From the NCBI GenBank assembly GCA_963702475.1, contig CAVPCT010000004.1, positions 256,001 through 320,000 on the forward strand: a stretch of 64,000 nucleotides of DNA, in the 5' to 3' direction. Below are positions 11,292 through 43,854 of this stretch, in pieces; position 1 is the first letter of the stretch, and each line of letters starts with the position of its first letter. Source of the DNA: an uncultured Thermoleophilia bacterium. GTDB taxonomy: Bacteria > Actinomycetota > Thermoleophilia > UBA2241. Made by a program: the position numbers and the translations under genes. The notes below the pieces were generated by a model. It ran no database searches. It was given only the letters and a program-made list of their open reading frames with translations, and was not told where the DNA came from.

Positions 11292-13892
11292 TCATGCGGT
11301 CTCGTAAGTACCGCCGTCCCACTTCTCGACCTCGATCTGAGCCGTGTTGGGAGCCATAGCGCAGGCATACTTGGACATGTAGCGGTCGGGCGTCAGGATG
11401 TTCATGCAGCCGCCGCGGTCGGCCGACTGGCCGGGCGTGCCCAGCGGGTCGTAGACGGCACAGGACTCGTAGGTGTGCACGGTCCCGGGCTGGACGCGCT
11501 CGCCGACCTGGGCGCAGACGATCACGGAGCCGCGGTCGTTGTAGGCCCGCACGAGGTCACCGGCCTTGATGCCGCGGGCCTCCGCGTCGACCTTGTTCAG
11601 GCGGATGATCCAGTAGTACCAGCCGTCCACCAGCACGCGGTGGTCCTTGATGTCGTTCATGAAGCTGTCCTTGCCGTCACCCATGGTGTGGAACGAGAAG
11701 CGCGGGTGCGGCGAGAGCATGCCGAGCGGGTACTTCTTGGCGAGCTCGCAACTCGGGCCTTCCCAGGCCGGCACGTAGGTGTGCATGGCCGGGCGGTACT
11801 CGTCCACGTAGCCCTGGTCCTCGAAGTTCTTGATACTCGAGGCGATGAACTCCACCTTGCCGGTGCGAGTCTGCAGGCCCTTGCGACCGACCTGGTTGTT
11901 GAGGCGCGGACCCCAGTCGGGGGTGTCCCTCTCGCGGTCCTCGGCGAACCACCGCAGGGCGGGCGTCTTCTTGCGGTCCGGGTTGTCCGGGACGACGAAG
12001 TACCCCTTCTCCTTGAACTCGGCGAAGGTCATGTGCTTGGGCATGTCGGTGGCGTTGTAGTACTGCTCCACCCAGGCCAGCTCATCCTTGCCCTCGGTGA
12101 ACATCGGTCCGATGCCGAGCTTCTCGGCGAGCATCGAGTAGATCTGGTAGTCCGACCTGGACTCGCCGACGGGTTCGATGCACTTGGCCTGCAGGGAGAT
12201 CACGCGGTGGTTGCACTGGCCGTACGTGTCCGGGATGTAGCCGGAGCAGTTGGCGAACTCGCTGATGTCCCAGCGCTCGAAGTTGGTGCAGGCCGGCAGG
12301 ATGATGTCGGCGAACGGCACCTCGCCCTCGAACCAGATGGACTGGCTCACGACGAACTCGAGGCTCTCGTGCGTGTACATCTGGGCGTAGCGGTTGGTGG
12401 CCGTCATGGTGCCGATCCACGGGCCGCCGTACTTCCAGAGCATCTTGATCTTCGGGTAGCCGGGCGCCGGGTACTCGTACTGGTGCATCTGGTGCTGGAT
12501 GTCGCCGCCGGCGAACCCCTTGCCCGACCACTTGAACTCGCCGTCCATGATGCACTCCGGCACCTTGAGGCGCGGGATGTGCTGGCCGGCGGCCGTGTTG
12601 ATGTTCGACGGGCTCGGGAACGTCGTCTTGCCGTCGAACATGCGCCAGGCGAACTTGAAGCCGGCGGCCGAGTTCTCTGCGTCGCCGGAGATGCCGCCCT
12701 CGGCGTAGCCCGGGAAGTAGAAGTCGTAGTCGACCGGGGTGCCCTGCGTGGTCGAGTAGATGTTGGAGCCCGGCTTGCCCATGCCCTGCATGGTGGCGAG
12801 GGCGATCATGCCGCGGCTCCACTCGATGCCATGCGAGGCGCGGCAGGCGCCGCCCCAGCCTCCCAGGCCGCCGGCGGCGAGCATGGTCTTGCGCTTGGCC
12901 CACTCACGGGCGAGCGCGCGGATCTCGCAGGCGGGCACGCCGGACTCGGCCTCGGCCCACTCGCAGGTCTTGGGCACGCCGTCGGTCTTGCCGAGCACGT
13001 ACTCCGCCCACTCGTTGAAGCCGTGGGCGCGTGTGTCCACGTACCCCTTGTCGTAGGTGTCCTCGGTGAGCCACGTGTAGGCGATGGCGAAGGACAGCGC
13101 GTGGTCGGTGCCGATCTTGGGCGAGAACCACTTGTCGCCGATCAAGCCGGCGGTGTGGTTGTAGAACGGGTCGATGAAGACCATCTTGATGCCGAGGTCC
13201 TTCATCCACTGACGGCGCACGGTGGACTCGTGGGCCGCGTAGATGCCGGTGTTGGTCTCCGGGTCGGAGGACCAGAAGACGATCATCTCGGTGTTCTCGA
13301 GGCAGTCCTCGAGCAGGTCGTACTGCTCGGGGTTGCCGAGGCGCCAGCTGAAGCCCCACATGTGCATGCCGCCCCAGTGCCAGCCTTCCCAGCTGTCCGG
13401 GTTATGGTCGGCGTAGGTGAAGCCCATCATGTTCATGAAGCGGAAGTACGTGCTGTGGCGGTAGCCCACGTTGCCCCACATGTGGTGGGAGCTCGGGCTG
13501 GAGAGGATCGCCGCCGGGCCTGCCTCGCGCTTCACGCGGTTGATCTCGCCGACCACGATGTCGGTGGCCTCGTCCCAGGAGATCGGCTCATAGCCGGAGA
13601 TGCCGCGATTCTGGATGTTGCGCTCGCCGTCGGTGTCGAAGTCCACGCGCTTGAGCGGCGTCATGATGCGCTTGTCCGAGTAGATCATGGACTTGAAGCC
13701 GGCAGTGTAGACCGAGTACGTGGTCTTGCGCGGCGGCTCGAAGGTCTGGCCGCGAGCCTCGATCCTCCAGGACGACGCATCGACGGCGTCGTCGAAGTCC
13801 ATCGGGGTGATACGGACGATCTTGCCGTCCTGAACGTAGACGAAGACCGGGCCCCCGGTCGACGAGTTGGTCAGTCGCACTACCTCTCCCAT
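11292..13892 (-). CDS. athL: Pyrogallol:phloroglucinol transhydroxylase alpha subunit (Mo-bis-MGD, DMSO reductase family)
   Basis: Starts MGEVVRLTNSSTGGPVFVYV, then SSHHMWGNVGYRHS, HNPDSWEGWHWG (Ser Mo ligand), FPGYAEGG and NCSGYIPD. True start is ATG 13892 after SD AAGGAG. Confidence 0.93.
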   Translation of the reverse strand: MGEVVRLTNSSTGGPVFVYVQDGKIVRITPMDFDDAVDASSWRIEARGQTFEPPRKTTYSVYTAGFKSMIYSDKRIMTPLKRVDFDTDGERNIQNRGISGYEPISWDEATDIVVGEINRVKREAGPAAILSSPSSHHMWGNVGYRHSTYFRFMNMMGFTYADHNPDSWEGWHWGGMHMWGFSWRLGNPEQYDLLEDCLENTEMIVFWSSDPETNTGIYAAHESTVRRQWMKDLGIKMVFIDPFYNHTAGLIGDKWFSPKIGTDHALSFAIAYTWLTEDTYDKGYVDTRAHGFNEWAEYVLGKTDGVPKTCEWAEAESGVPACEIRALAREWAKRKTMLAAGGLGGWGGACRASHGIEWSRGMIALATMQGMGKPGSNIYSTTQGTPVDYDFYFPGYAEGGISGDAENSAAGFKFAWRMFDGKTTFPSPSNINTAAGQHIPRLKVPECIMDGEFKWSGKGFAGGDIQHQMHQYEYPAPGYPKIKMLWKYGGPWIGTMTATNRYAQMYTHESLEFVVSQSIWFEGEVPFADIILPACTNFERWDISEFANCSGYIPDTYGQCNHRVISLQAKCIEPVGESRSDYQIYSMLAEKLGIGPMFTEGKDELAWVEQYYNATDMPKHMTFAEFKEKGYFVVPDNPDRKKTPALRWFAEDRERDTPDWGPRLNNQVGRKGLQTRTGKVEFIASSIKNFEDQGYVDEYRPAMHTYVPAWEGPSCELAKKYPLGMLSPHPRFSFHTMGDGKDSFMNDIKDHRVLVDGWYYWIIRLNKVDAEARGIKAGDLVRAYNDRGSVIVCAQVGERVQPGTVHTYESCAVYDPLGTPGQSADRGGCMNILTPDRYMSKYACAMAPNTAQIEVEKWDGGTYETA

Positions 13893-23235: not shown

Positions 23236-23973
23236 TCACGCATCCTCGTGCCGCCGCACGACCTCCTGGGCCAGGAACGACGCCACCTCGAGCGGCGTGG
23301 TGCGCGGCCCGAAGCCGGCGTCGTACCCCAGTTCCTTGGCGAACGCGTTGTTGATGCGCGGGCCGCCAACGATCAGGACGAACCGCTCTCGCACCCCCTC
23401 CGCCTCCAGCAACTCGATGAGCTGTGTGAGGTGCTGCACGTGGATGTTCTTCTGCGTGACGATCTGGCTGACGAGGATCGCGTCGGCGTCACGCTCCAGC
23501 GCGGTGCGCAGGAGCTGAGCGCAGGGGATCTGCGAGCCCATGTTGAGCGCATCCATCTCCGGGTAACGCTCCAGCCCGTAGTTCCCGGCGAAACCCTTCA
23601 TGTTCATGATCGCGTCGATGCCCACGGTGTGAGCGTCGCTCTCGATGGCCGCGCCGACCACGACGAGCTTGCGCCCGAGCTTCGCCTTGATGAGCGCGTT
23701 GATGGCGTAGTAGTCCATCTCCTCGACCTCGAGGTAGTCGCCCTTCACGTCGTCCGGGTCGATGCCGGTGTCGGTGCGGCCGTACGCCACGTAGAAGGTG
23801 TAGTCGGGGTCGATGGGCTTGCACTCGGCGATCCCCACGGTGTGAAAGCCGAGCGTCTCGAGGAACTGCTTGCCAACGTCGTGGGCCTTGACGGAGTAGG
23901 CGATGGGCAGCGTGAAGGAGAGCTGGATGATGCCGTCGTCACGAGTATCGCCGTACGGCTTTACTAACATCAC
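23236..23973 (-). CDS. kamE: Lysine 5,6-aminomutase beta subunit (adenosylcobalamin/PLP-binding)
   Basis: KPYGDT..DG, DAHTVG (DxHxxG) and MKGFAG..GLERY. Confidence 0.95.
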   Translation of the reverse strand: MMLVKPYGDTRDDGIIQLSFTLPIAYSVKAHDVGKQFLETLGFHTVGIAECKPIDPDYTFYVAYGRTDTGIDPDDVKGDYLEVEEMDYYAINALIKAKLGRKLVVVGAAIESDAHTVGIDAIMNMKGFAGNYGLERYPEMDALNMGSQIPCAQLLRTALERDADAILVSQIVTQKNIHVQHLTQLIELLEAEGVRERFVLIVGGPRINNAFAKELGYDAGFGPRTTPLEVASFLAQEVVRRHEDA

Positions 23974-25613
23974 CGTCCTCCTTTCGCGGCTCCGGCCGGG
24001 ACGCCGGCGGCCGCGCCCTTCCGGGCTGCGAGGGACGCGCCGGGCGGCGGGCCCTCCGGCGGGCCACTCAGGCGCCCGTCGCGCAACGCCGCGAAGAACG
24101 GGTTGAAGTAGTCCTCGCGGCGCCTGAAGACGCCCTCAAAGCCGCGGCCTCCGCCGCGATCGCGCTTCACGTCGGCGAACTCGCCCAGCTCGAGGGCCTT
24201 GAAGAGGCTGATCTCCTGCACGTGCTCGAGCTGGTCCACGGCCTTCTGGAGCTGGTCGTTCGCACGCTGCTCGATGATGCCGCCGGGCCGGAACGTGACC
24301 TCGCCGGCCAGGTCGCGGCAGCTCTCGAACACGTACTTCGCGTTCTTGATGCTCAGGTAGCGGTCCTGGAGCAGCGGCGTGTGCAGCGCCTCAGTGAGCA
24401 TCCCCAGGAGCATGATCTCCTGGCCCGTGAAGATGCCGGTGAAATTGAACATGCCGTCGATGATGTGCCCCTGGAAGATGTCGCCCGGCATGTACTTGGT
24501 GGGCGGCATGTACTTGAGCGGGTAGCCGGGAAACAGCTCGCGGATGAGCTGCGCGTCGGCGATCTGGTAGACGACCTGATCGGGTTTGGCCGGGTTGATC
24601 TCGAAGGCGTGGCCGAGTCCGATCTGCCAAGGTTCGAGGTCGGCGCGCAGCGCAAAGGCCTCGTTGATGAAGTCCGAGCTGACCACTGTGTAGCCCTTCT
24701 CGACGGCGTCCGCTGTGGTCAGGTAGTTGTCCTCGCCGGTGTTGATGATGATGCCGGCGCGCGCGTTGATCAGGCGGCTGAGGTACTGGTCGACGAACGT
24801 CCGCTCCATGTTGATGTTGCGGAAGATGATCCCGTACATCGAGTCGTTGAGCATCATGTCCAGACGCTCGAGCGCCCCCATCGTGGCGATCTCCGGCATA
24901 CAGAGGCCGCTGGCGTAGTTGCACAGGCGGACGTAGCGGCCGAGCTCTTCACCGACCTCGTCGAGGGCGGCGCGCATGAGGCGGAAGTTCTCCTGGGTGG
25001 CGTAGGTGCCGCCGAAGCCCTCAGTGGTCTCGCCGTAGGGCACGTAGTCCAGCAGGCTCTGCGCGGTGGTGCGGATCACGGCGATCACATCCGCGCCGGC
25101 GCGGGCCGCGGCTTTCGCCTGGGCGGCGTCCTCGTAGATGTTGCCGGTGGCGACGATGACGTACACGTAGGGCTTCACCGGCTCGCCGACCGTGGCGACG
25201 AGTTGGTTGCGGTGCGCGCGGACGGCGTCGATACGCGCGACGCCGGCGGCGGCGAGATTCGCCGCACGGGCCTCTGCGGCCGCACGCCGCTCACCCGGCA
25301 CCTCCGCCAGCGAAAGGTCGCCGGAGGCGACGCCCTCAGCGGCCTGCTGTGCATCGCGTCCTGTCTGAAGCATCAGGTCGACGAACGGGAGCATCACTCC
25401 GCCCGGCAGCAGCTCCCGGGCGTGTTCAACGACCACGTTGACCAGCGGCACGTCGATCTCGTTCACGCCGGCGACACCCAGCAGCCGGAGCGTGGCGCGC
25501 TCAGTGCTGTCGGTGGTATGCGCCTCGATGTGCTCCTGGATGTCGTCGGCAATGGCCTCGGCGGCCGCGCGGGCGCGCGCCACCAGGCCGTCGTCCAGAC
25601 GAAGGGCGTTCAC
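23970..25613 (-). CDS. kamD: Lysine 5,6-aminomutase alpha subunit
   Basis: IVATGNIYED, QSLLDYVPYG, GFGGTYATQENF, NYASGLCMPE and PLKYMPPTK. Confidence 0.97.
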   Translation of the reverse strand: MNALRLDDGLVARARAAAEAIADDIQEHIEAHTTDSTERATLRLLGVAGVNEIDVPLVNVVVEHARELLPGGVMLPFVDLMLQTGRDAQQAAEGVASGDLSLAEVPGERRAAAEARAANLAAAGVARIDAVRAHRNQLVATVGEPVKPYVYVIVATGNIYEDAAQAKAAARAGADVIAVIRTTAQSLLDYVPYGETTEGFGGTYATQENFRLMRAALDEVGEELGRYVRLCNYASGLCMPEIATMGALERLDMMLNDSMYGIIFRNINMERTFVDQYLSRLINARAGIIINTGEDNYLTTADAVEKGYTVVSSDFINEAFALRADLEPWQIGLGHAFEINPAKPDQVVYQIADAQLIRELFPGYPLKYMPPTKYMPGDIFQGHIIDGMFNFTGIFTGQEIMLLGMLTEALHTPLLQDRYLSIKNAKYVFESCRDLAGEVTFRPGGIIEQRANDQLQKAVDQLEHVQEISLFKALELGEFADVKRDRGGGRGFEGVFRRREDYFNPFFAALRDGRLSGPPEGPPPGASLAARKGAAAGVPAGAAKGGR

Positions 25614-26752
25614 GGCATCACCTGCTTTCCTCCGAAGGGTTCAGGCGCCGCTGCATCGTCGGTTGCGGCGAGCCCGTTGACGACGTCGAACAGGGGGACG
25701 CGGTCGCCCGTCGCTGCGGCTACCGCGTGGAAGAACTCTTTGGGCCGGTACGGCTGCGGCACGCGAAAGGAGTTCGCTGTCACCGCAAGGAGACGCAGGG
25801 GCGTGAGCACCTCCACGGCCACACCGCGGCGCAGCAGTCGCGCTACGCCCACCGGCGGCAGGACGAGCACGGTCGGGTCGCGGACCACCAGCCTGAGCGC
25901 GCGGCGAGGCGGGAGCACTCTCACCAAGTCATCCACGAACTCCTGCGTGAGGGCGCCGCCCACGTAGAGCAGGCGGGCGCCAAGGCGATCCACCCGGCGC
26001 GCCACGGTCACGCCCTCACCGACGACACTGTGAAGCTCGAGCGGTTCGGCGTGGCCGTGCTCGTCCACACACACGGCACGGCGCCCGTCCGCGATGTACG
26101 GTTGGAGCAGGGCGCGGGTACCGTCGTCCGGCGCCGGCAGCGTGAGCATCTCGACCGCGGCTGCGGTCGTCTCGACGACGTCGTCGAGGGTGTCGCCGAC
26201 CATGCCTCCGGTGGCCAGCACGAGGCCGTCGCTCACGCGAGGCGAGGCGCTGCCGATGCGGTTGATGGCCCCGTCCACCAGGACCTGCGCGGCACCCAGC
26301 GCCTGAAGCCTCGCGACGGTGGAGCTGAGCTCGGCCAGCGTAGTGGGACCGCTGACCTCCACCTCACCGCCCTCGGACCGACCGATGACGACGCGGCCCA
26401 GGGGCGTATGGAAGGGGAGCTCCTCCACGACCTCGAGCTCACAGTGCGAGCGCTGGAGCGAGCCGCGCGTTGTGGCCACCAGTGTGCCCGGCGGCGGCGA
26501 GATCCTCGGCTTGGCCAGTCCGGTGAGGTGGTCGGTGCGCTCGCCGTCAAGGCCGAGCGACGTAAGACCGAGGCAGCGAGCGTCCGCGGCCAGCAGGGCG
26601 TTGACGACCGTGGTCTTGCCGGCGTTCTTGACCAGCCCGATCACGGCCAAGGAGCGGCAGCCCGACCCTGCCACCAGGTCGTGCAGCGCCGTCACCGTAG
26701 CCTCGTCGGGGCGCGCGGCGCCGCGCGCCTTGACGGGGTTCACGGCATCCAT
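25610..26752 (-). CDS. kamB: Lysine 5,6-aminomutase reactivase subunit KamB-like
   Basis: IGLVKNAGKTT P-loop, TSLGLDGE..D, TPLG and VDGA; directly upstream of kamD. Confidence 0.8.
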   Translation of the reverse strand: MDAVNPVKARGAARPDEATVTALHDLVAGSGCRSLAVIGLVKNAGKTTVVNALLAADARCLGLTSLGLDGERTDHLTGLAKPRISPPPGTLVATTRGSLQRSHCELEVVEELPFHTPLGRVVIGRSEGGEVEVSGPTTLAELSSTVARLQALGAAQVLVDGAINRIGSASPRVSDGLVLATGGMVGDTLDDVVETTAAAVEMLTLPAPDDGTRALLQPYIADGRRAVCVDEHGHAEPLELHSVVGEGVTVARRVDRLGARLLYVGGALTQEFVDDLVRVLPPRRALRLVVRDPTVLVLPPVGVARLLRRGVAVEVLTPLRLLAVTANSFRVPQPYRPKEFFHAVAAATGDRVPLFDVVNGLAATDDAAAPEPFGGKQVMP

Positions 26753-37782: not shown

Positions 37783-38740
37783 GAAGAAGGCCCTGGGTCG
37801 TGGGCTCGGGGCGCTCATCGGCGACAGCAGGGCGGCTCTGGCGCGCTCCAGCGTTGGCGCGCCGCGCGAGGGCAGGCTGCGCGAGCTGCCGCTCGCCGAG
37901 ATCACGGTGAACCGGCGCCAGCCGCGCCGCGTGTTCGCGTCCGAGGAGCTCGAGGAGCTGGCGGCATCCATCAAGGCGCTCGGCGTCGTGCAGCCGGTGG
38001 TCGTGAGGCCGCTGGACGACGGCGCCGACTCGGCGGCCGAAGGGCCGTCCGGGAGCGGCGACGCCCGTGCGACCGCCGCTCCGGGCTCGGGCGTCGGCCC
38101 GCGCTTCGAGCTCATCGCCGGCGAGCGCCGCTTGCGCGCGGCCACGCTGGCGGGCCTGGAGTCCATCCCCGCGCTCGTGCGGCCGGCCGATGAGGTCGCC
38201 TCGCTTGAGATCGCGCTGGCCGAGAACGTGGCGCGTGAGGATCTCAACAGCATCGAGGAGGCGCAGGCGTACGCGGCGCTCGTGGACGAGTTCGGCGTCA
38301 CGCACGAGCGCGTCGCCGAGCTCGTCGGTCGCAGCCGTGCGGCGGTGAGCAACCTGCTGCGCCTGCTCGAGCTGCCCGACGACGTGCAGCGCATGATCGA
38401 GCAGGGCGAGCTCAGCGAAGGGCATGGGCGGGCGCTGCTGGCTCTGCCCGGCCACGAGCAGCGCCGCAAGACGGCGCGGCTGGTGGCGTCACAGGGCCTC
38501 TCTGTGCGCCAGACCGAGGTTCTCGTGAAGAAGCTCGGCGAGGAGGCGACCGGAGGCGGCGCGCCTGCGGCCCGCCGGCCCGCCGCCGACTACTCCGACC
38601 TTGTCGACGAGCTCTACGGGGTGCTCGAGGCGCCGGTCCGCATCACCAGCGGCGCCCGCGGCGGCAGTATCCAGATCGCCTTCAAGAGCAAGGCAGAGCT
38701 CGAGCGGATCGTCGATCTGCTGCGCTCGCTCGGCGCCTGA
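37775..38740 (+). CDS. parB: ParB/Spo0J partitioning protein
   Basis: LGRGLGAL, GERRLRA, ENVAREDL and HTH SRAAVSNLLRLL. GTG start at 37775 after AAGGAGG. Confidence 0.97.
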   Translation: MTEKKALGRGLGALIGDSRAALARSSVGAPREGRLRELPLAEITVNRRQPRRVFASEELEELAASIKALGVVQPVVVRPLDDGADSAAEGPSGSGDARATAAPGSGVGPRFELIAGERRLRAATLAGLESIPALVRPADEVASLEIALAENVAREDLNSIEEAQAYAALVDEFGVTHERVAELVGRSRAAVSNLLRLLELPDDVQRMIEQGELSEGHGRALLALPGHEQRRKTARLVASQGLSVRQTEVLVKKLGEEATGGGAPAARRPAADYSDLVDELYGVLEAPVRITSGARGGSIQIAFKSKAELERIVDLLRSLGA

Positions 38741-38800
38741 CCCCTCCCGCGTGTGGCGCCCTCGGCGTCCCCGCGGTCGAGCGTCACTCCCGCGGACGGC

Positions 38801-39394
38801 TCACTGGGGCGCGGGGGTGCTCACCGACTCCGGCGCGCTGTAAACGTCTGGCGTCGCGTACGGGTCCGGCGACGGCGTCGCGGCCTGGTACGGATCGGTG
38901 GTGGGGTAGTCGGTGGTGGTGGGCGTGGGAGTCGTGGTCGCACCCGGCGTGGTGGTGGTCTCGCCGCTTGGCGTTGCACCGGGCGGCGTGGAGCCGGAAG
39001 GGACGTACACGACCGTGCCGTCCGCCAGCGTGTAGAAGGACCCCAGCAGCGTCCCAACGCCCTCAACGACGGCGCCGTTGTCGAGGTCGAGCCTCGTGAT
39101 CTGGTCGCCATCCTTCACGATCACCTGCATGGCCTCGGTGCCCGGGTCGGTGACGACTGTCATGGTGTCGTTCGTGAGCAGGCCCGTGAGACCGGCCCCT
39201 GTGAGCGCCGCGACGAGGAAGCCGACGGCCAGCACGAGGACCACGACCCAGAGATTGACGATGCCGTCGAGCGGGTCGCCGTTGCGGTCTGCAGTGCCGA
39301 CGCGGCGTCGGCGCATGTAGCGCAACTCCGACGCCGGAGCCTCGTACACGCTGCCGACGTCGTGGATGGCCGGGTGGTCGTCCGAGGCCGCCAA
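38801..39394 (-). CDS. DUF2149-family membrane protein (ExbD/MotB-like partner) with Pro/Thr-rich tail
   Basis: RRRR..DPLDGIVNLWVVVLVLAV TM, then DPGTEAMQVIVKDG..G..G..YTLADGTVVYVP; downstream of a MotA/TolQ gene. Confidence 0.8.
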   Translation of the reverse strand: MAASDDHPAIHDVGSVYEAPASELRYMRRRRVGTADRNGDPLDGIVNLWVVVLVLAVGFLVAALTGAGLTGLLTNDTMTVVTDPGTEAMQVIVKDGDQITRLDLDNGAVVEGVGTLLGSFYTLADGTVVYVPSGSTPPGATPSGETTTTPGATTTPTPTTTDYPTTDPYQAATPSPDPYATPDVYSAPESVSTPAPQ

Positions 39395-39401
39395 CTCGGT
39401 C

Positions 39402-40450
39402 TCAGCGGCCGCCGGTCGAGCCGGCGCCGGGCGCGGCCGGCGGCTCCTTGTCGACCGGACCGAGGTCGGCGAACGGGTCGTCGTCCCGATGCCAGCTCAT
39501 GGAAGGGTCGTCGAACGTGAGCGGCGGCGCTTCGCCGGCCGCCGCTCGCGCCGGCGCCGCAGTGTCGACCGCCGGCGCGGTGGGGGCTCCGCCCAAGGCC
39601 AGTGTCTGCGTCGACTCCAGGTCGTCGTCGCGATGGTCGTGGCAGCGACCGTCGCCGGACCGTGTCCGTTGTCGGAGGCCACCGGCACAAGCGGCTCGGA
39701 CGGGACCTCGTCGAGTGCGGGCACGGCGAGGGGCCTCTCCACATCCGCGCTGTCTACTTCGTAGGCGACCTCCGGATCGGCGTCCCACACGCCCTTCTTG
39801 CTGCGCCTACGGCCGGACTCGAGGCGGCCGCTGCCGCCCTCGAGCAGCTCCAGGAGGTACTCCATGTCGGAGATGTCCTGAGAGTACATTCGGTCGCGCA
39901 CGATGCTGATGACGAAGGCGATGCCGCCGATGAGCAGACCGATGACGGTCACGGAGAACGCCGTGACCAGGTTCACCGAGAGCTCCTCCACATCGCCGCT
40001 GGCGAGCCCGACGAGGGCGGGCGCGAGCGGGATCAAGGTGCCCATGAGGCCCAGCATGGGGCCGATGCGCACGAGGATGCGCGTCCGCTCGAGCCGCTTG
40101 ATCGTGTAGAACTCGTAGTCCTGCAGCAGCTTGAGGGGCTTGGCTGCCAGGCGCTGTGTCTGGTAGTTGCGGATGAGGTCGAAGAGGAAGCGCGCGACGA
40201 TCAGCGAGTAGTTGTTCTCCTGGAGGTAGCGGTACGCCGTGCGCGGTTTGCCGTCTTCGAACGCCTTGCGTGCACGCAAGGCCCGGGCCTCGAGCGCCTC
40301 GATGTCGCGGTAGCGGAACCTCAGGTAGAGCTCGTACAGGAAGAACCCGAGCTCGACAAGCACCCAGATGAGGCAGAGGACTGCGGCGATGAGCACGGGC
40401 CACAGGAGCACCCGCGCGATGTCGTAGATGAGTTCCTGGAGACCGTTCAC
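39402..40450 (-). CDS. MotA/TolQ/ExbB proton channel family protein (probable frameshift near 39641 in the acidic tail)
   Basis: LERTRILVRIGPMLGLMGTLIPL..AFSVTVIGL. The track ORF ends at 39497, but a more protein-like acidic tail continues in another frame to 39402. Confidence 0.88.
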
Positions 40451-42291
40451 GCTCTCCCCGCCGGTTTGAAGATGTCCTTGACGCCGGCCGCCCTCGCCTT
40501 GAGACGGTCCCAGGTGCTGCCGCCGCCGGGGAGCACCTCGCCCTGGCTGGCCGCGCCGAGCGCGTCTTCGCGGCGGCGTACCACGAAGTACGAAGCGGCG
40601 GCGCCGATCGGCAGCAACACGAGCAGGGTACCACCGACGAAGCCGGCGGCACTACCCCGGCCCGCGTCCGCAGTCCCGGTGGCCTCAGCGCTGCTCGTGG
40701 CTTCGGGACTGGCTATCGGGGTACCGGAGATCGGATAGCCGCTCTGGTACGGGCCCGGCGTCCCCGTGGGCTCGACCGACGGCGAGTAGGTGGGGCCGGG
40801 CGTCAGGGTGGGGTACGGCTCGGGCGAGTAGGTGGGGTAAGGCTCCGAGGTGCTCGGTTCGGGCGTGGGCGTCGGGTACGTGGTGGGCGGCGGGACGTAC
40901 GTCGGCTGGGCGGTGGGGATGGGTACGACGGGCGTGGTCTTGGCGACCACGAACGTGCGCTGCACCGTCTTGGTATTGCCGGCGTGATCCACGAGCTCGA
41001 GCTTGTAGGTGTGGTTGCCGTTGGGCATGTCCTTGAGCGTGAGGTGCAGCTCGCGGGTGCCGATGACGGCCGGCTTGGTGCGGTCCTGGTTGTCCACGAA
41101 CACCTTGCAGGCCTTGGGGTTGATGCCCGTGCCTCTCACGCCGTCAGTGTAGGTCGCGCGGATGAGCACTGTGTTAGTGGTCGTGTACTTCGCGCCGTTC
41201 CGCGGCGACGTGCTGAGTACCTTGGGCTTGAACACGAACGCCTTGAGCGCGGGGGGGCGCGTGGCGGGGTAGGTGGTGAACGGCTGGTCGCGCAGGGCCG
41301 TGACGGCCCAGGCTGTCGTCTCGAGCGGCTTGGTGGTCTCGCCTGTCTTCTTGAGATAGGCGCCGGTCTTCTGCTGCAGGGCGGTGAGCGCGAGACGCGG
41401 CGTGGACGCCGTGGTCTGCCAGAACGAGTCGTCGGGCTTCTCGCCGAGGACCAGGATGGCCTGGATGGCGGCGGCCGTCGCCCACGCGTCGGTCTTGCCG
41501 CCGCTCGTCGCCGGAAAGCCACCGTCGGGGCTCTGGTTGTCCTTGAGGTACTGGCGCGCCGCCGGCAGGACGTCGGCGTCCACGCTGCCGTCGGCCGCCA
41601 TGCTGAGCGCCTGGATGGCCAGGGCGGTGTCTTCACAGTTGGAGGACTGCCCGGCCTGCACCGGGAACCCCCCGTCTGCCTGCTGTTGCTTCTCGAGCCA
41701 CGTCTCGGCGGACTTGAACCGGTCACTGGAGGTCACGCCCATGGCCTTCATGGCGAGGATCGCCCAGGCGGTGGTGTGCACCGCTCTGAACTCCCGGTTG
41801 GACTGGGCCGGCGAGAAGCTGCCGGCCGTGGCGGAGCCCTCGGTGGTGTCCTGGTAGGAATAGAGCTGCGCCAGCAGGTCGACGTGCGGCGTGCCGGCCA
41901 CGAAGACGCGGTCCTCCTGACCGGCGGCCACGTACGACAGGATGGCCTGCGCGTAGTACACCGGCGCGTTGTCGGAGTCCGCCCCCGTGGCCGCCTTCGC
42001 GTGGTCGTTGGCCTGCAGGAAGGTGAACGGGTTGTTGCCCGCGATGGTCCACATGGACGAGCCGATGCGCTCGCCGCTGGCCACTGCGCCGATGATCACC
42101 CACGTCGTGGCCGTCATGGAGCCGAACCCGCCGTCGGCCTTCTGGCGCGCGTGGAAGTAGTCCAGGCCGCGGGTGACGCTCTTGGGGCGTGGGTCGGTCG
42201 GTGTGTCGCGCTTGAGGGCCGTGGCCGAGGCGGCGACGCCGACCGCGAGCGCCGCGGCGAGCGCGAGCGCGAGCCAGAACTTCCTGCCCAT
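40447..42291 (-). CDS. Surface-anchored prenyltransferase/squalene-oxidase-repeat protein with Ig-like domain, Pro/Thr linker and C-terminal TM
   Basis: Signal peptide MGRKFWLALAL; repeats QKADGGFG, QQADGGFP and QSPDGGFP; Ig-like G.HT..L...DHAGN; PTYxP repeats; TM followed by RRR. Confidence 0.85.
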   Translation of the reverse strand: MGRKFWLALALAAALAVGVAASATALKRDTPTDPRPKSVTRGLDYFHARQKADGGFGSMTATTWVIIGAVASGERIGSSMWTIAGNNPFTFLQANDHAKAATGADSDNAPVYYAQAILSYVAAGQEDRVFVAGTPHVDLLAQLYSYQDTTEGSATAGSFSPAQSNREFRAVHTTAWAILAMKAMGVTSSDRFKSAETWLEKQQQADGGFPVQAGQSSNCEDTALAIQALSMAADGSVDADVLPAARQYLKDNQSPDGGFPATSGGKTDAWATAAAIQAILVLGEKPDDSFWQTTASTPRLALTALQQKTGAYLKKTGETTKPLETTAWAVTALRDQPFTTYPATRPPALKAFVFKPKVLSTSPRNGAKYTTTNTVLIRATYTDGVRGTGINPKACKVFVDNQDRTKPAVIGTRELHLTLKDMPNGNHTYKLELVDHAGNTKTVQRTFVVAKTTPVVPIPTAQPTYVPPPTTYPTPTPEPSTSEPYPTYSPEPYPTLTPGPTYSPSVEPTGTPGPYQSGYPISGTPIASPEATSSAEATGTADAGRGSAAGFVGGTLLVLLPIGAAASYFVVRRREDALGAASQGEVLPGGGSTWDRLKARAAGVKDIFKPAGRA

Positions 42292-42804
42292 GCGGGTCCT
42301 TTGTGCGTAGCCGGGCGAGTGCGGAGACTGGCGCCCATGGTACCAAGGGGACCGGGGCCGGACCACCGCCGTGTGGTGGGACGGAGCATCCGTATAGAGA
42401 GGTTCATTCCCGGGACCATTGGGTCGACACGGTGGATATGGGGCCGCGACCGACAGACGGCAGGACGACACCGACGGAGAGCTGGAGTCCTTCGGCTTCC
42501 AGCTGCGCGTGAAGAGCCCGCACCTGGCCGCGCTCCTGACCGGCGCCGACGACCGCGTGTCGATCGTCCGTGCCCGGGAGCAGGTGCCGCACGAGACCCG
42601 GACGGTGACCTGTGACTCCAGAGTGTCGTGGCGGAGCGCGCAGGGGAGGCGGGCGGCGCGGTCGTCCAACTCCGCCGCCCTTCGTCCGACTGCTGAGCCG
42701 CCCTGCACGGGCGACGGTGGCCTCGTTGGTCTGCGGGTGAGACTCCCAGAGGGCGCGATCGCCTGCGGCCGCGCGCCCGCGACGTTGTATCCTTGCTAGC
42801 CGAC

Positions 42805-43854
42805 ATGGCCGTCCTGCTCTCACTCGTCATCCCCGTCTACAACGAGGTCGACAGCCTCGAACCGCTCGTCGCCGAGATCGACGAGGCGCTGGCCGCTGCC
42901 GGGCAGGCCTTCGAGATCGTCTTCGTGGACGACGGCTCCAGCGACGGGTCCTTCCGCGTGATGCAGGAGCTTGCCGCAAGCCGCGGCGACGTGCGCGTGG
43001 TGAAGCTCCGACGCAACTTCGGCAAGGCTGCGGCCCTCTCGCACGGGTTCGAGGTGTGCAGGGGCGACGTCGTGGTCACCCTGGACGGCGACCGTCAGGA
43101 CGACCCCGCCGAGATCCCGCGGCTGATCGCACGCCTCGACGAGGGCTTCGACCTCGTCTCGGGCTGGAAGCAGAGCCGTCAGGACCCCATCGACAAGACG
43201 CTCCCGTCACGGTTCTTCAACTGGACGGTGCGGAGGACCACCGGCCTGCCGTTGCACGACTTCAACTGCGGCCTCAAGGCGTACCGCCGCGAGGTGGTCG
43301 ATACCATCCACATCTACGGCGAACAGCACCGCTACATCCCCGTCGTGGCCTCACAAGCGGGGTTCACGGTCACCGAGGAGCCGGTGCACCACCGTAAGCG
43401 CACGGCAGGTGTGTCCAAGTACGGCTGGCAGCGTTATCTGCGCGGCTACCTCGACCTGACCACGGTCCTCTTCCTCGGCCGGTACCAGCACCGGCCGCAG
43501 CATCTGTTCGGCGGCATCGGCACACTGCTCATCGTGATCGGCGTGCTCGTGGAGCTGTACCTGACGATCGACAAGCTCGCCTTCGGGAACCCTATCGGGC
43601 AGCGCCCGCTCCTTCTTCTGGGGGCGCTGCTCATCATCGTCGGAGTGCAGCTTCTGTCGCTCGGGCTGATCGGCGAGCTCATCGCCAACTCCCGCGCGCG
43701 CGAAGGGCCGGACACGCTGCAGGTGGCGGCCGTGATCGAGCCTGCGCCCGAAGCGCTCCCGGCGCCGCAGTCCGTCGTCCTCGCCGGCGCCGGGTCGGCC
43801 CCGGCGCCCGGCGGCGCGTCCGTTCCCGTGCCGGGCGCCGCCGACACGCCGTGA
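42805..43854 (+). CDS. GT2 polyprenol-phosphate glycosyltransferase (ArnC/DPM1-like)
   Basis: IPVYNE, VDDGSSD, RNFGKA, DGDRQDDP and two C-terminal TMs. Confidence 0.92.
   Translation: MAVLLSLVIPVYNEVDSLEPLVAEIDEALAAAGQAFEIVFVDDGSSDGSFRVMQELAASRGDVRVVKLRRNFGKAAALSHGFEVCRGDVVVTLDGDRQDDPAEIPRLIARLDEGFDLVSGWKQSRQDPIDKTLPSRFFNWTVRRTTGLPLHDFNCGLKAYRREVVDTIHIYGEQHRYIPVVASQAGFTVTEEPVHHRKRTAGVSKYGWQRYLRGYLDLTTVLFLGRYQHRPQHLFGGIGTLLIVIGVLVELYLTIDKLAFGNPIGQRPLLLLGALLIIVGVQLLSLGLIGELIANSRAREGPDTLQVAAVIEPAPEALPAPQSVVLAGAGSAPAPGGASVPVPGAADTP

Follow-up and report, generated by a model that had tools for sequence, protein, structure and literature searches.

A MotA/ExbB-type channel and a DUF2149 protein encoded together with a stalked toroid surface protein in a Thermoleophilia bacterium lacking matches for CobN and TonB

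Introduction

Pairs of a MotA/ExbB and a DUF2149 protein are described under the names HmuU and HmuV, and the accessible parts of the reports dealing with them leave their role in heme uptake unclear (PMC11681262; PMC10434189; PMC12094164; PMC12583661). In Bacteroidota they belong to the hmuYRSTUV operon (PG1555/PG1556 of P. gingivalis, as well as B. thetaiotaomicron), and in archaea to clusters with the order CobN-DUF2162-MotA-DUF2149, both arrangements being linked to tetrapyrroles. Here we address a locus of an uncultured Thermoleophilia bacterium (assembly GCA_963702475.1), which occupies positions 38801..42291 on the minus strand of a 64,000-nucleotide stretch of contig CAVPCT010000004.1 (hereafter, the window) and in which, as in these clusters, a gene for a MotA/ExbB-like channel is adjacent to and followed by a gene of the DUF2149 family. 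Unlike them, the locus has neither CobN/HmuS nor any match for a TonB-dependent receptor or an outer-membrane protein, no DUF2162/HmuT-like gene stands at it, and the upstream partner of the channel is instead a C-terminally anchored surface protein with a toroid domain, referred to below as SURF.

Comparison with the Ton system reveals likeness in the channel, which is of the MotA/ExbB type and the second and third transmembrane helices (TM2-TM3) of which can be aligned with those of E. coli ExbB; in its small bitopic partner, which in most of the DUF2149 family carries a conserved Asp within the membrane helix; in the presence of a third protein, fixed in the membrane, whose distal binding domain is set off by a Pro-rich spacer; and in the link to the uptake of scarce cofactors. 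The differences are that the small partner is not a member of the ExbD family and has lost this Asp in the window copy, that TonB_C, a receptor barrel and outer-membrane families remain without a match, and that the stalked protein, presumed to be the receptor itself, has its anchor at the C-terminus. On the side of Gram-positive bacteria, exported toroids were predicted to scavenge B12 on the cell surface together with SLBB (DUF4430) domains and CbiO/CbiQ (Burroughs et al., 2007, PMC1796856), DUF4430 is equated with transcobalamin's C-terminal domain (PMC4350170), and a preprint claims heme as the ligand of the transcobalamin-like alpha/beta pair Lsa1839/Lsa1840, which accompanies an energy-coupling factor (ECF) system in L. 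sakei (10.1101/864751), as far as the accessible parts of these three sources go. SURF is likewise an exported toroid, and sister lineages of the window's genus supplement it with two DUF4430 proteins, an ECF importer and a cobalamin riboswitch; however, the window is devoid of DUF4430 and ECF parts, SURF possesses in addition an immunoglobulin-like (Ig) domain, a stalk, a membrane anchor and a conserved cytoplasmic tail, and no motor genes are described in the accessible text of PMC1796856 or 10.1101/864751.

A survey of 2025 considers Ton parts in monoderm Actinobacteria "likely non-functional" and, in its accessible part, makes no mention of DUF2149 (PMC12204202). In a literature search that subscription journals and supplements mostly lay outside, no paper was found which treats DUF2149 in monoderms or connects the motor pair with either a surface receptor of monoderms or a B12 ECF operon. 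The interpretation developed below, in which we have as much confidence as doubt, is that the trio constitutes one envelope machine of a monoderm bacterium, combining a receptor with an HmuU/HmuV-type channel and representing the relic end of a corrinoid capture operon.

Results

The three genes as a unit

The source genome is a 4.3-Mb metagenome-assembled genome (MAG) of 9 contigs with 70% G+C, and the window is a part of contig C4; its completeness of 93.78% and contamination of 6.49% define the scope of all absences reported here for this genome. The three genes are as follows.

40447..42291, minus strand: SURF, 614 aa, with ATG at 42291 inside the open reading frame 40447..42708 and the ribosome-binding site aaagga
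39402..40450, minus strand: MotA/ExbB/TolQ-like channel gene (Pfam PF01618), assembled as an open reading frame of 317 aa at 39497-40450
38801..39394, minus strand: DUF2149 (HmuV-like) gene, 197 aa (Pfam PF09919)

All of them are co-oriented, and the GTG start of the channel gene overlaps the stop codon of SURF as GTGA, so that the observation behind the original prediction is confirmed, in its gene content, from the open reading frames and the sequence. For comparison, 14 loci were fetched, 12 of them from the same genus (11 genomes) and two from the more remote genomes G037 and G038. The order SURF-MotA-DUF2149 is retained in 11 of the 12 same-genus loci, all of which are flanked by GidB/ParA/ParB on one side and by GT2/GT1/LPG_synthase_TM/DUF2079 on the other; L032, the remaining one of the twelve, is an additional copy in genome G023 and contains MotA and DUF2149 with no SURF. 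G037, belonging to another family, keeps the trio at a different chromosomal place with 37% identity of SURF, and in G038 the gene upstream of MotA and DUF2149 encodes a partner other than SURF. The three-gene order, on the conservation of which the original prediction had staked itself, is therefore conserved in relatives.

Linkage of the genes extends to their joint absence. Of 24 other genomes of the genus, 21 possess DUF2149 (for other families of the class the count is 2 of 16), and in all three same-genus genomes devoid of it, which are 90-95% complete, SURF is missing too, both control genomes being SURF-positive. Crude ratios of nonsynonymous to synonymous substitution rates (dN/dS), calculated against the closest relative, amount to 0.35 for SURF, 0.14 for MotA and 0.15 for DUF2149, with 0.21 and 0.12 for the neighboring ParB and ParA. 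These data support the view that the three genes behave as one unit under purifying selection. As to the twelfth locus, G023 carries two nearly identical MotA-DUF2149 copies, L032 on contig C7 and L033 on contig C25, and the surroundings of the C7 copy are unrelated; the extra copy may have arisen by duplication, from a mix of strains or as an assembly chimera.

Surface protein SURF

SURF is composed of the following parts.

aa 1-24: signal peptide
about aa 30-345 (41257-42204, minus strand): alpha/alpha toroid, by AlphaFold2 and fold matches
aa 357-449 (40945-41223, minus strand): Ig-like beta-sandwich, confident in AlphaFold2
aa 455-545 (40657-40929, minus strand): Pro/Thr/Ser stalk, by composition
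aa 546-614 (40450-40656, minus strand): membrane helix and conserved cytoplasmic tail

In Pfam the protein matches SQHop_cyclase_N (42.2 bits, cut-off 26.2), Prenyltrans (40.0 bits, cut-off 26.5) and TED_complement (28.0 bits, cut-off 22), the Ig domain being weak by this measure (Big_7, 19.6 bits, below the cut-off of 24.1). The AlphaFold2 model, built with an alignment of 76 sequences, has a mean predicted local distance difference test (pLDDT) value of 80.2 and displays a helical toroid at about 37-333, a disordered segment at 462-554, a membrane helix at 553-581 and a short cytoplasmic helix. Of the 91 residues of the linker 455-545, 24 are Pro, 17 Thr and 10 Ser. Three DGGF repeats are located at residues 49, 202 and 253, and the sequence contains neither a D.DD (DxDD) nor a DD..D (DDxxD) motif. 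The description of an exported prenyltransferase-repeat protein with an Ig domain, a Pro/Thr stalk, a transmembrane anchor and no DxDD is thus borne out by Pfam, AlphaFold2 and the motif scan. Within the tail R574, A581, G591, S592 and W594 are invariant across 76 sequences, and a short motif (G523, S528, P529) is conserved inside the otherwise variable stalk; judging from this conservation, the stalk motif and the cytoplasmic tail are candidate contact sites.

By fold, and in agreement with Pfam, the toroid is best matched by class II terpene cyclases and the beta subunits of prenyltransferases (Z 24.5-24.9 over 273-278 aligned residues), from which SURF differs in its export and in the lack of DxDD. 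Intrinsic factor (3kq4_A) is aligned over 250 residues with Z 20.8 and transcobalamin (7qbf_A) with Z 20.6, scores comparable to those of geranylgeranyl transferases and of sugar epimerases, Z for sugar epimerases/hydrolases being about 21-22. The proposed identity of the toroid with the transcobalamin/intrinsic-factor fold holds to the extent that the structures do align, but since terpene cyclases outscore the B12 carriers, the fold names no ligand and gives no pointer to B12.

Two other assignments were considered and rejected. Attribution of SURF to class II terpene cyclase or prenyltransferase enzymes is contradicted by the missing DxDD, the signal peptide, the extracellular position and low NCBIfam scores (about 32 bits for the cyclases TIGR01507, TIGR01787 and TIGR03463 at cut-offs of 323-851). 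The SCO2321 family of membrane proteins (NF053823) is matched with 67.3 bits at a cut-off of 300 and is a related toroid family only. A search of the ESM Atlas returned only short toroid clusters of Bacillota and Actinomycetota, bearing no functional names.

Channel protein and DUF2149 subunit

The channel gene gives the single MotA_ExbB match of the whole source genome (PF01618, 30.5 bits, cut-off 22.9). With a profile of 61 relatives, hhalign aligned TM2-TM3 to E. coli ExbB with a probability of 78% (E 1.8e-5); the 60 aligned columns take in the Gly-x-x-Gly-Thr segment and the segment containing Thr. In a sequence-profile search of the PDB the MotA profile reached MotA 8gqy at E 0.13 only. 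The reading frame breaks in the assembly near 39629, placing the acidic C-terminal motif of the family in another frame (out-of-frame tail 39402-39788); if restored, it ends with TGA at 39402-39404, 7 nt 5′ of the DUF2149 start. Contigs from two public runs belonging to different studies carry at position 39629 one additional G (X1) or two bases fewer (X3), either of which restores the frame, and the same assembly breaks CbiD (G000:C6:228421-229228) into two reading frames that lie within a few bases of each other. In view of both facts an assembly indel is the likely origin of the break; the frame is probably disrupted by an assembly error and the real gene end is probably at 39402. The acidic motif of the MotA tail tends to co-occur with a Gly-Gly-Gly-Ser/Thr-x-Trp motif in the tail of SURF, which is a lead only because the compared rows are close kin.

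DUF2149 is represented in the source genome by one match (PF09919, 66.1 bits, cut-off 27.1), which is also the sole Pfam match of this protein at E <= 0.1. The chain begins in the cytoplasm with an Arg-rich segment, crosses the membrane once (helix, aa 41-66), forms a small ectodomain of five strands (aa 78-132) and ends in a Pro/Thr tail; the AlphaFold2 model has pLDDT 69. Relatives outside the family were sought by several means: hhalign against E. coli ExbD yielded a probability of 5.9% with 19 membrane columns aligned, the PDB profile search produced only noise (E 0.17) with neither ExbD nor TolR, and the best match of the model among 48,161 chains had Z 3.3, leaving nothing usable.

The alignment by hhalign places position 50 of the membrane helix opposite D25 of E. 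coli ExbD. An Asp is found at this position in at least 90% of 55 sequences of the DUF2149 family, and the 12 same-genus sequences contain D in seven cases, T in three, P in one and V in one, the latter being the window copy; D40 of the GDPL motif immediately preceding the helix is invariant in the same-genus alignment. In the Ton system the membrane Asp of the small partner, D25 of ExbD, is essential. Taken at the level of sequence, the replacement would mean either that coupling differs in a part of the genus or that the ion path is impaired. As to the motor driven by proton-motive force that was initially envisaged, the channel family aligns with ExbB, but ion-driven action is doubtful in the window copy owing to the exchange of Asp for Val. 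Prediction of a complex of two DUF2149 chains (residues 36-140) with SURF residues 505-590 obtained a score of 0.01 and a mark of 0.32, which is evidence neither way.

Corrinoid context in sister lineages

In genome G037 a cobalamin riboswitch (RF00174, 60.2 bits) heads a run of genes on one strand, which encode first two DUF4430 proteins (one with SLH, then a lipoprotein), next CbiQ, a double ABC ATPase and an S-component, and finally SURF, MotA and DUF2149; the S-component-like protein is of the DUF6580/ECF_trnsprt type, and BtuR lies divergently on the opposite strand. Scanning of species genomes with the MotA alignment returned 80 loci, and five of them (L052, L053, L056, L057 and L058) reproduce this ECF-linked layout, four being headed by cobalamin riboswitches of 72-83 bits (Rfam) and L052 being cut at the contig start. 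Altogether, six ECF-linked sister loci are available, with a cobalamin riboswitch ahead of five (G037, L053, L056, L057, L058) and DUF4430 found in the operons of G037, L053 and L058; the same Rfam scan disclosed no riboswitch at the stand-alone loci L046, L054 and L055. For the proteins of sister operons NCBIfam offers no curated name. L053 and L056, with GT2 on the upstream and ParB/ParA on the downstream side, reside in the window's own slot, where their riboswitch, DUF4430 and ECF genes take the place of the 500 bp of the window.

The MotA tree groups the stand-alone loci of the window's genus with support of 99/98 and leaves the ECF-linked rows outside this clade as an unresolved grade, which fits the loss of the importer part in the genus without proving it. 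When G037 proteins, among them the S-component, the DUF4430 proteins and CbiQ, were compared by tblastn with the source genome, only SURF found its counterpart. CbiD was detected in none of five ECF-linked genomes (G037 is 98% complete; no completeness is given for the other four) and in two of five genomes searched from the genus, including that of the window. The source genome carries two cobalamin riboswitches, both on another contig and ahead of cobalamin synthesis genes, and in the genus riboswitches precede salvage or late-pathway genes of the CobU/CobT/CobS/CbiB/CobQ type, which indicates that the genus uses and handles corrinoids; the riboswitch-led cluster of G007 also includes a Peripla_BP_2 gene. 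The capture of corrinoids or tetrapyrroles put forward in the original prediction gains from the riboswitch/ECF context of five relatives and loses from the absence of riboswitch, ECF and DUF4430 in the window and its genome, and the corrinoid link is thereby partly supported, by ancestry and by the context of relatives, without a direct sign in the window.

Elsewhere in the source genome (G000:C3:435000-446000) an ECF-like set was noticed, consisting of a 704-aa double ATPase, a 204-aa membrane protein and a weak CbiQ and followed by secreted proteins and an ABC importer; no riboswitch was found at this set (435-439 kb).

Wider survey of MotA-DUF2149 loci

Among the 80 loci returned, a simple gene caller found MotA in 73. 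DUF2149 stands directly downstream of it in 53 of the 73, and a same-strand gene stands upstream in 56. This upstream partner has a C-terminal anchor in 37 of the 56 loci (no more than three hydrophobic segments, a terminal membrane helix and a basic tail) and is a multi-pass DUF2162 protein in eight, which are archaeal and commonly have CobN nearby; by kind, toroids account for 12 loci and PKD-domain proteins for 15, others making up the rest. Within six genes of MotA we encountered ECF/DUF4430 at 5 of the 73 loci, oxyanion importers (PBP_like_2 + BPD_transp_1 + ABC/TOBE) at 12, two of which also belong to other contexts, heme-type genes (HtaA + Peripla_BP_2 + FecCD) at seven and CobN at eight, mostly archaeal; by clustering, 41 loci bear none of these marks. 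The statement that such pairs "normally" sit beside CobN is accordingly valid for the archaeal loci surveyed and, by the papers, for Bacteroidota, but not for Actinomycetota.

In modules of the heme and oxyanion types the partner is a PKD-type protein, unlike SURF. Natural fusions also occur: in P0157, P0163 and P0159 exported ectodomains (LEA_2/Big_14-like, PsbP-like) are attached to the N-terminus of a MotA-like channel, and P0251 has a multi-pass region resembling DUF2162 fused to such a channel, which argues for physical association of partner and channel. Two particular contexts deserve mention. In L113, an actinobacterial MAG, a molybdenum/tungsten cofactor (Moco) riboswitch at 12097-12223 separates the MotA-DUF2149 module from a PBP_like_2/permease/ATPase importer, and in L065, L079, L084, L105, L123 and L124 (MAGs of Thermoleophilaceae/Solirubrobacterales) HtaA and Peripla_BP_2/FecCD lie beside a PKD-anchor-MotA-DUF2149 module.

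Envelope type

Profile searches of the source genome gave no match for CobN (PF02514), TonB_C (PF03544) or ExbD (PF02472), and Omp85 was found in none of seven genomes searched, this one included. DUF2162 (PF09930) is absent among the neighbor genes, to which its scan was limited, the gene upstream of the channel being SURF. Although a genome that is 94% complete calls for the customary caution, the lack of Omp85, TonB, ExbD and CobN matches makes a monoderm envelope likely, and the organism is likely a monoderm actinobacterium of the Thermoleophilia type, as had been surmised together with the absence of CobN and TonB. In a comparison directed at Zorya and other MotAB-like defense systems, PADLOC (2023 library) returned no family at E <= 0.01 for any of the three proteins.

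Genomic neighborhood

The trio is enclosed between parB (plus strand, ending at 38740) and GT2 (plus strand, starting at 42793). Two features precede SURF.

42335..42347, minus strand: motif cttggtaNcatgg, about 45 nt before the SURF start, containing a TANNAT -10-like hexamer
42292..42792, no strand: divergent intergenic region between SURF and GT2, with no riboswitch, which is the slot of B12/ECF genes in L053 and L056

Motif cttggtaNcatgg corresponds to invariant columns in the alignment of 10 same-genus regions upstream of SURF and is probably the promoter of the trio. Rfam returned at E <= 1 for 38000-43500 of the window only noise-level Ms_IGR-4 and gyrA matches and no riboswitch. Divergently from SURF and just 5′ of GT2 there is a small open reading frame (42419-42799, plus strand) kept across the genus, which exhibits codon-like conservation in the alignment of upstream regions and has no Pfam family; the version of relatives is apparently about 80 aa long and rich in acidic residues toward its end.

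The segment 42793-50055 appears as an envelope glycosylation cluster (GT2, GT1, LPG_synthase_TM, DUF2079 and a PMT/PIG-V-like mannosyltransferase), and by pure speculation its products might decorate the Pro/Thr stalks of SURF and DUF2149. KamDE, the subunits of B12-dependent D-lysine 5,6-aminomutase, are encoded at 23236-25640, 13.2 kb from the trio. Their position about 13 kb away, adduced originally as a source of B12 demand, is correct, yet the argument is weak given the cobalamin synthesis genes behind the two riboswitches of the genome. KamDE are accompanied by a thiolase and a dehydrogenase-like gene, and the whole segment 20790-25640 looks like a cluster of the lysine-fermentation type.

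Discussion

In the envelope machine proposed here SURF would be the receptor, its C-terminal helix lying in the cytoplasmic membrane and the Pro/Thr stalk carrying the toroid and Ig head through the wall, and the MotA/ExbB-like protein and DUF2149 would constitute an ion-channel complex of the HmuU/HmuV type, resembling a stator. By analogy with the action of ExbB-ExbD on TonB, the target of this complex may be the membrane-proximal end of SURF, which would be moved or pulled when ions flow through a MotA-like ring surrounding DUF2149; the displacement would alter the distal toroid head, and a tightly bound ligand could be released toward an importer. Ancestrally, the module would have been the last part of a corrinoid capture operon, controlled by a cobalamin riboswitch and comprising DUF4430/SLBB proteins, the toroid protein and the ECF importer; the window's genus would have lost riboswitch, DUF4430 and ECF genes from the same chromosomal slot and kept the trio, the task of which is probably still to bind a corrinoid or some related tetrapyrrole on behalf of a different importer. 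The nature of the ligand, the physical coupling of SURF to the channel and the release or hand-over of ligand driven by ion flow are what we infer from these comparisons.

Several facts weigh against this interpretation. The window locus has neither a riboswitch (by Rfam) nor ECF genes, DUF4430 (PF14478) has no match in the source genome, and tblastn with the S-component and DUF4430 proteins of G037 found none there. The base of the MotA tree is unresolved and does not decide between loss and gain of the ECF part, and import may be dispensable for a genome with genes of cobalamin synthesis. In fold comparison, terpene cyclases (Z 24.9) come closer to the toroid than intrinsic factor and transcobalamin do (Z 20.6-20.8). 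DUF2149 of the window has Trp-Val with V50 where the family has Phe-Asp, and, should this position work as in ExbD, the window copy could not conduct ions in the usual way; beyond the membrane helix DUF2149 displays no significant sequence or fold relation to ExbD/TolR. Finally, the anchor of SURF and those of PKD-type partners have no detectable homology (hhalign probability 1.8%).

One alternative is that the machine is the same and the ligand, at least in the window's genus, is heme, another tetrapyrrole or a metal cofactor. We regard this as unlikely: HmuU/HmuV do work in heme uptake of Bacteroidota, further actinobacterial MotA/DUF2149 modules adjoin HtaA/FecCD heme-type genes or oxyanion importers, the L. 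sakei preprint claims heme in its accessible part (10.1101/864751) and the window lacks B12 regulation, but all five importer-linked SURF-type loci with a visible upstream region have a cobalamin switch, and the heme and oxyanion modules employ a PKD-type partner instead. Likewise unlikely is the conversion of the trio to cell-envelope work, the toroid binding a polyprenyl lipid or glycan and serving the GT2, GT1, LPG_synthase_TM, DUF2079 and PMT-like genes. Such a function would suit the closest folds (terpene cyclases, Z 24.9; sugar epimerases/hydrolases, Z about 21-22), the synteny with GT2, GT1 and DUF2079 in 11 same-genus loci and the lack of B12 elements at the locus; it is opposed by the absent DxDD motif and the export of the head, by the divergent or convergent orientation of the glycosyltransferase genes, which are not co-transcribed with the trio, and by G037, L057 and L058, where the trio has no glycosylation neighbors. 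Moreover, GT2/ParB flanks also surround the ECF-linked L053 and L056, which implies that the synteny is older than the loss.

The motor itself may be questioned. MotA/DUF2149 could serve as a scaffold, a signaling device or a translocation path, leaving to SURF only the delivery of ligand, and persistence of the pair with no adjacent importer in the window's genus, variation of the Asp position within the genus and the absence of an ExbD-like ectodomain from DUF2149 are compatible with this. Nevertheless, the channel shares with ExbB an alignable TM2-TM3 region in which the conserved Gly/Thr pattern recurs, no fewer than 90% of the sequences of the wider family retain the membrane Asp, and known members of the MotA/ExbB family conduct ions, not large cofactors, so that we find a non-motor role improbable. 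Least probable, and very much so, is that the window trio is a decaying, functionless leftover of a B12 operon. The disappearance of riboswitch, DUF4430 and ECF genes, Val in place of D50, the frameshifted motA tail of the assembly and the genome's own cobalamin production could be read in this way; against it speak dN/dS values of 0.14-0.35, similar to those of housekeeping neighbors, the intact trio in 11 of 12 same-genus loci, the conservation of promoter-like upstream motifs, and the absence of the frame break from contigs of two other runs, the split CbiD of the same assembly suggesting indel errors.

Going beyond the relic corrinoid machine proposed for the window, one may ask whether monoderm Actinomycetota, along with some Firmicutes and archaea, own a counterpart of the Ton system, in which a MotA/DUF2149 motor would drive the capture or release of scarce nutrients by anchored, wall-spanning receptors with swappable heads (a toroid for corrinoids, PKD-type heads for heme or oxyanion cofactor systems) and the ligand would be handed over to ECF or ABC importers. 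The window would then represent an importer-independent member of the corrinoid branch, with the normally proton-carrying Asp replaced and coupling altered. This generalization is tentative, and we are inclined to doubt it more than to believe it.

If true, it would mean that a motor-receptor unit is wired into the B12, heme and molybdate/tungstate importers of monoderms, and it would provide the orphan DUF2149/HmuV with a testable role, of relevance to the HmuTUV genes that await an explanation in Bacteroidota of the gut and the mouth. Models of competition for cobalamin among soil and sediment bacteria would have to include an extra step. The window offers a natural importer-less version of the module and a natural Asp-to-Val variant of the small subunit, and cultured carriers of sister modules exist in Conexibacter and Aeromicrobium. 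Powered uptake across the envelope is textbook knowledge for two-membrane bacteria and is assumed to be needless in bacteria with one membrane; a motor-plus-receptor unit in monoderms, if true, would change this view.

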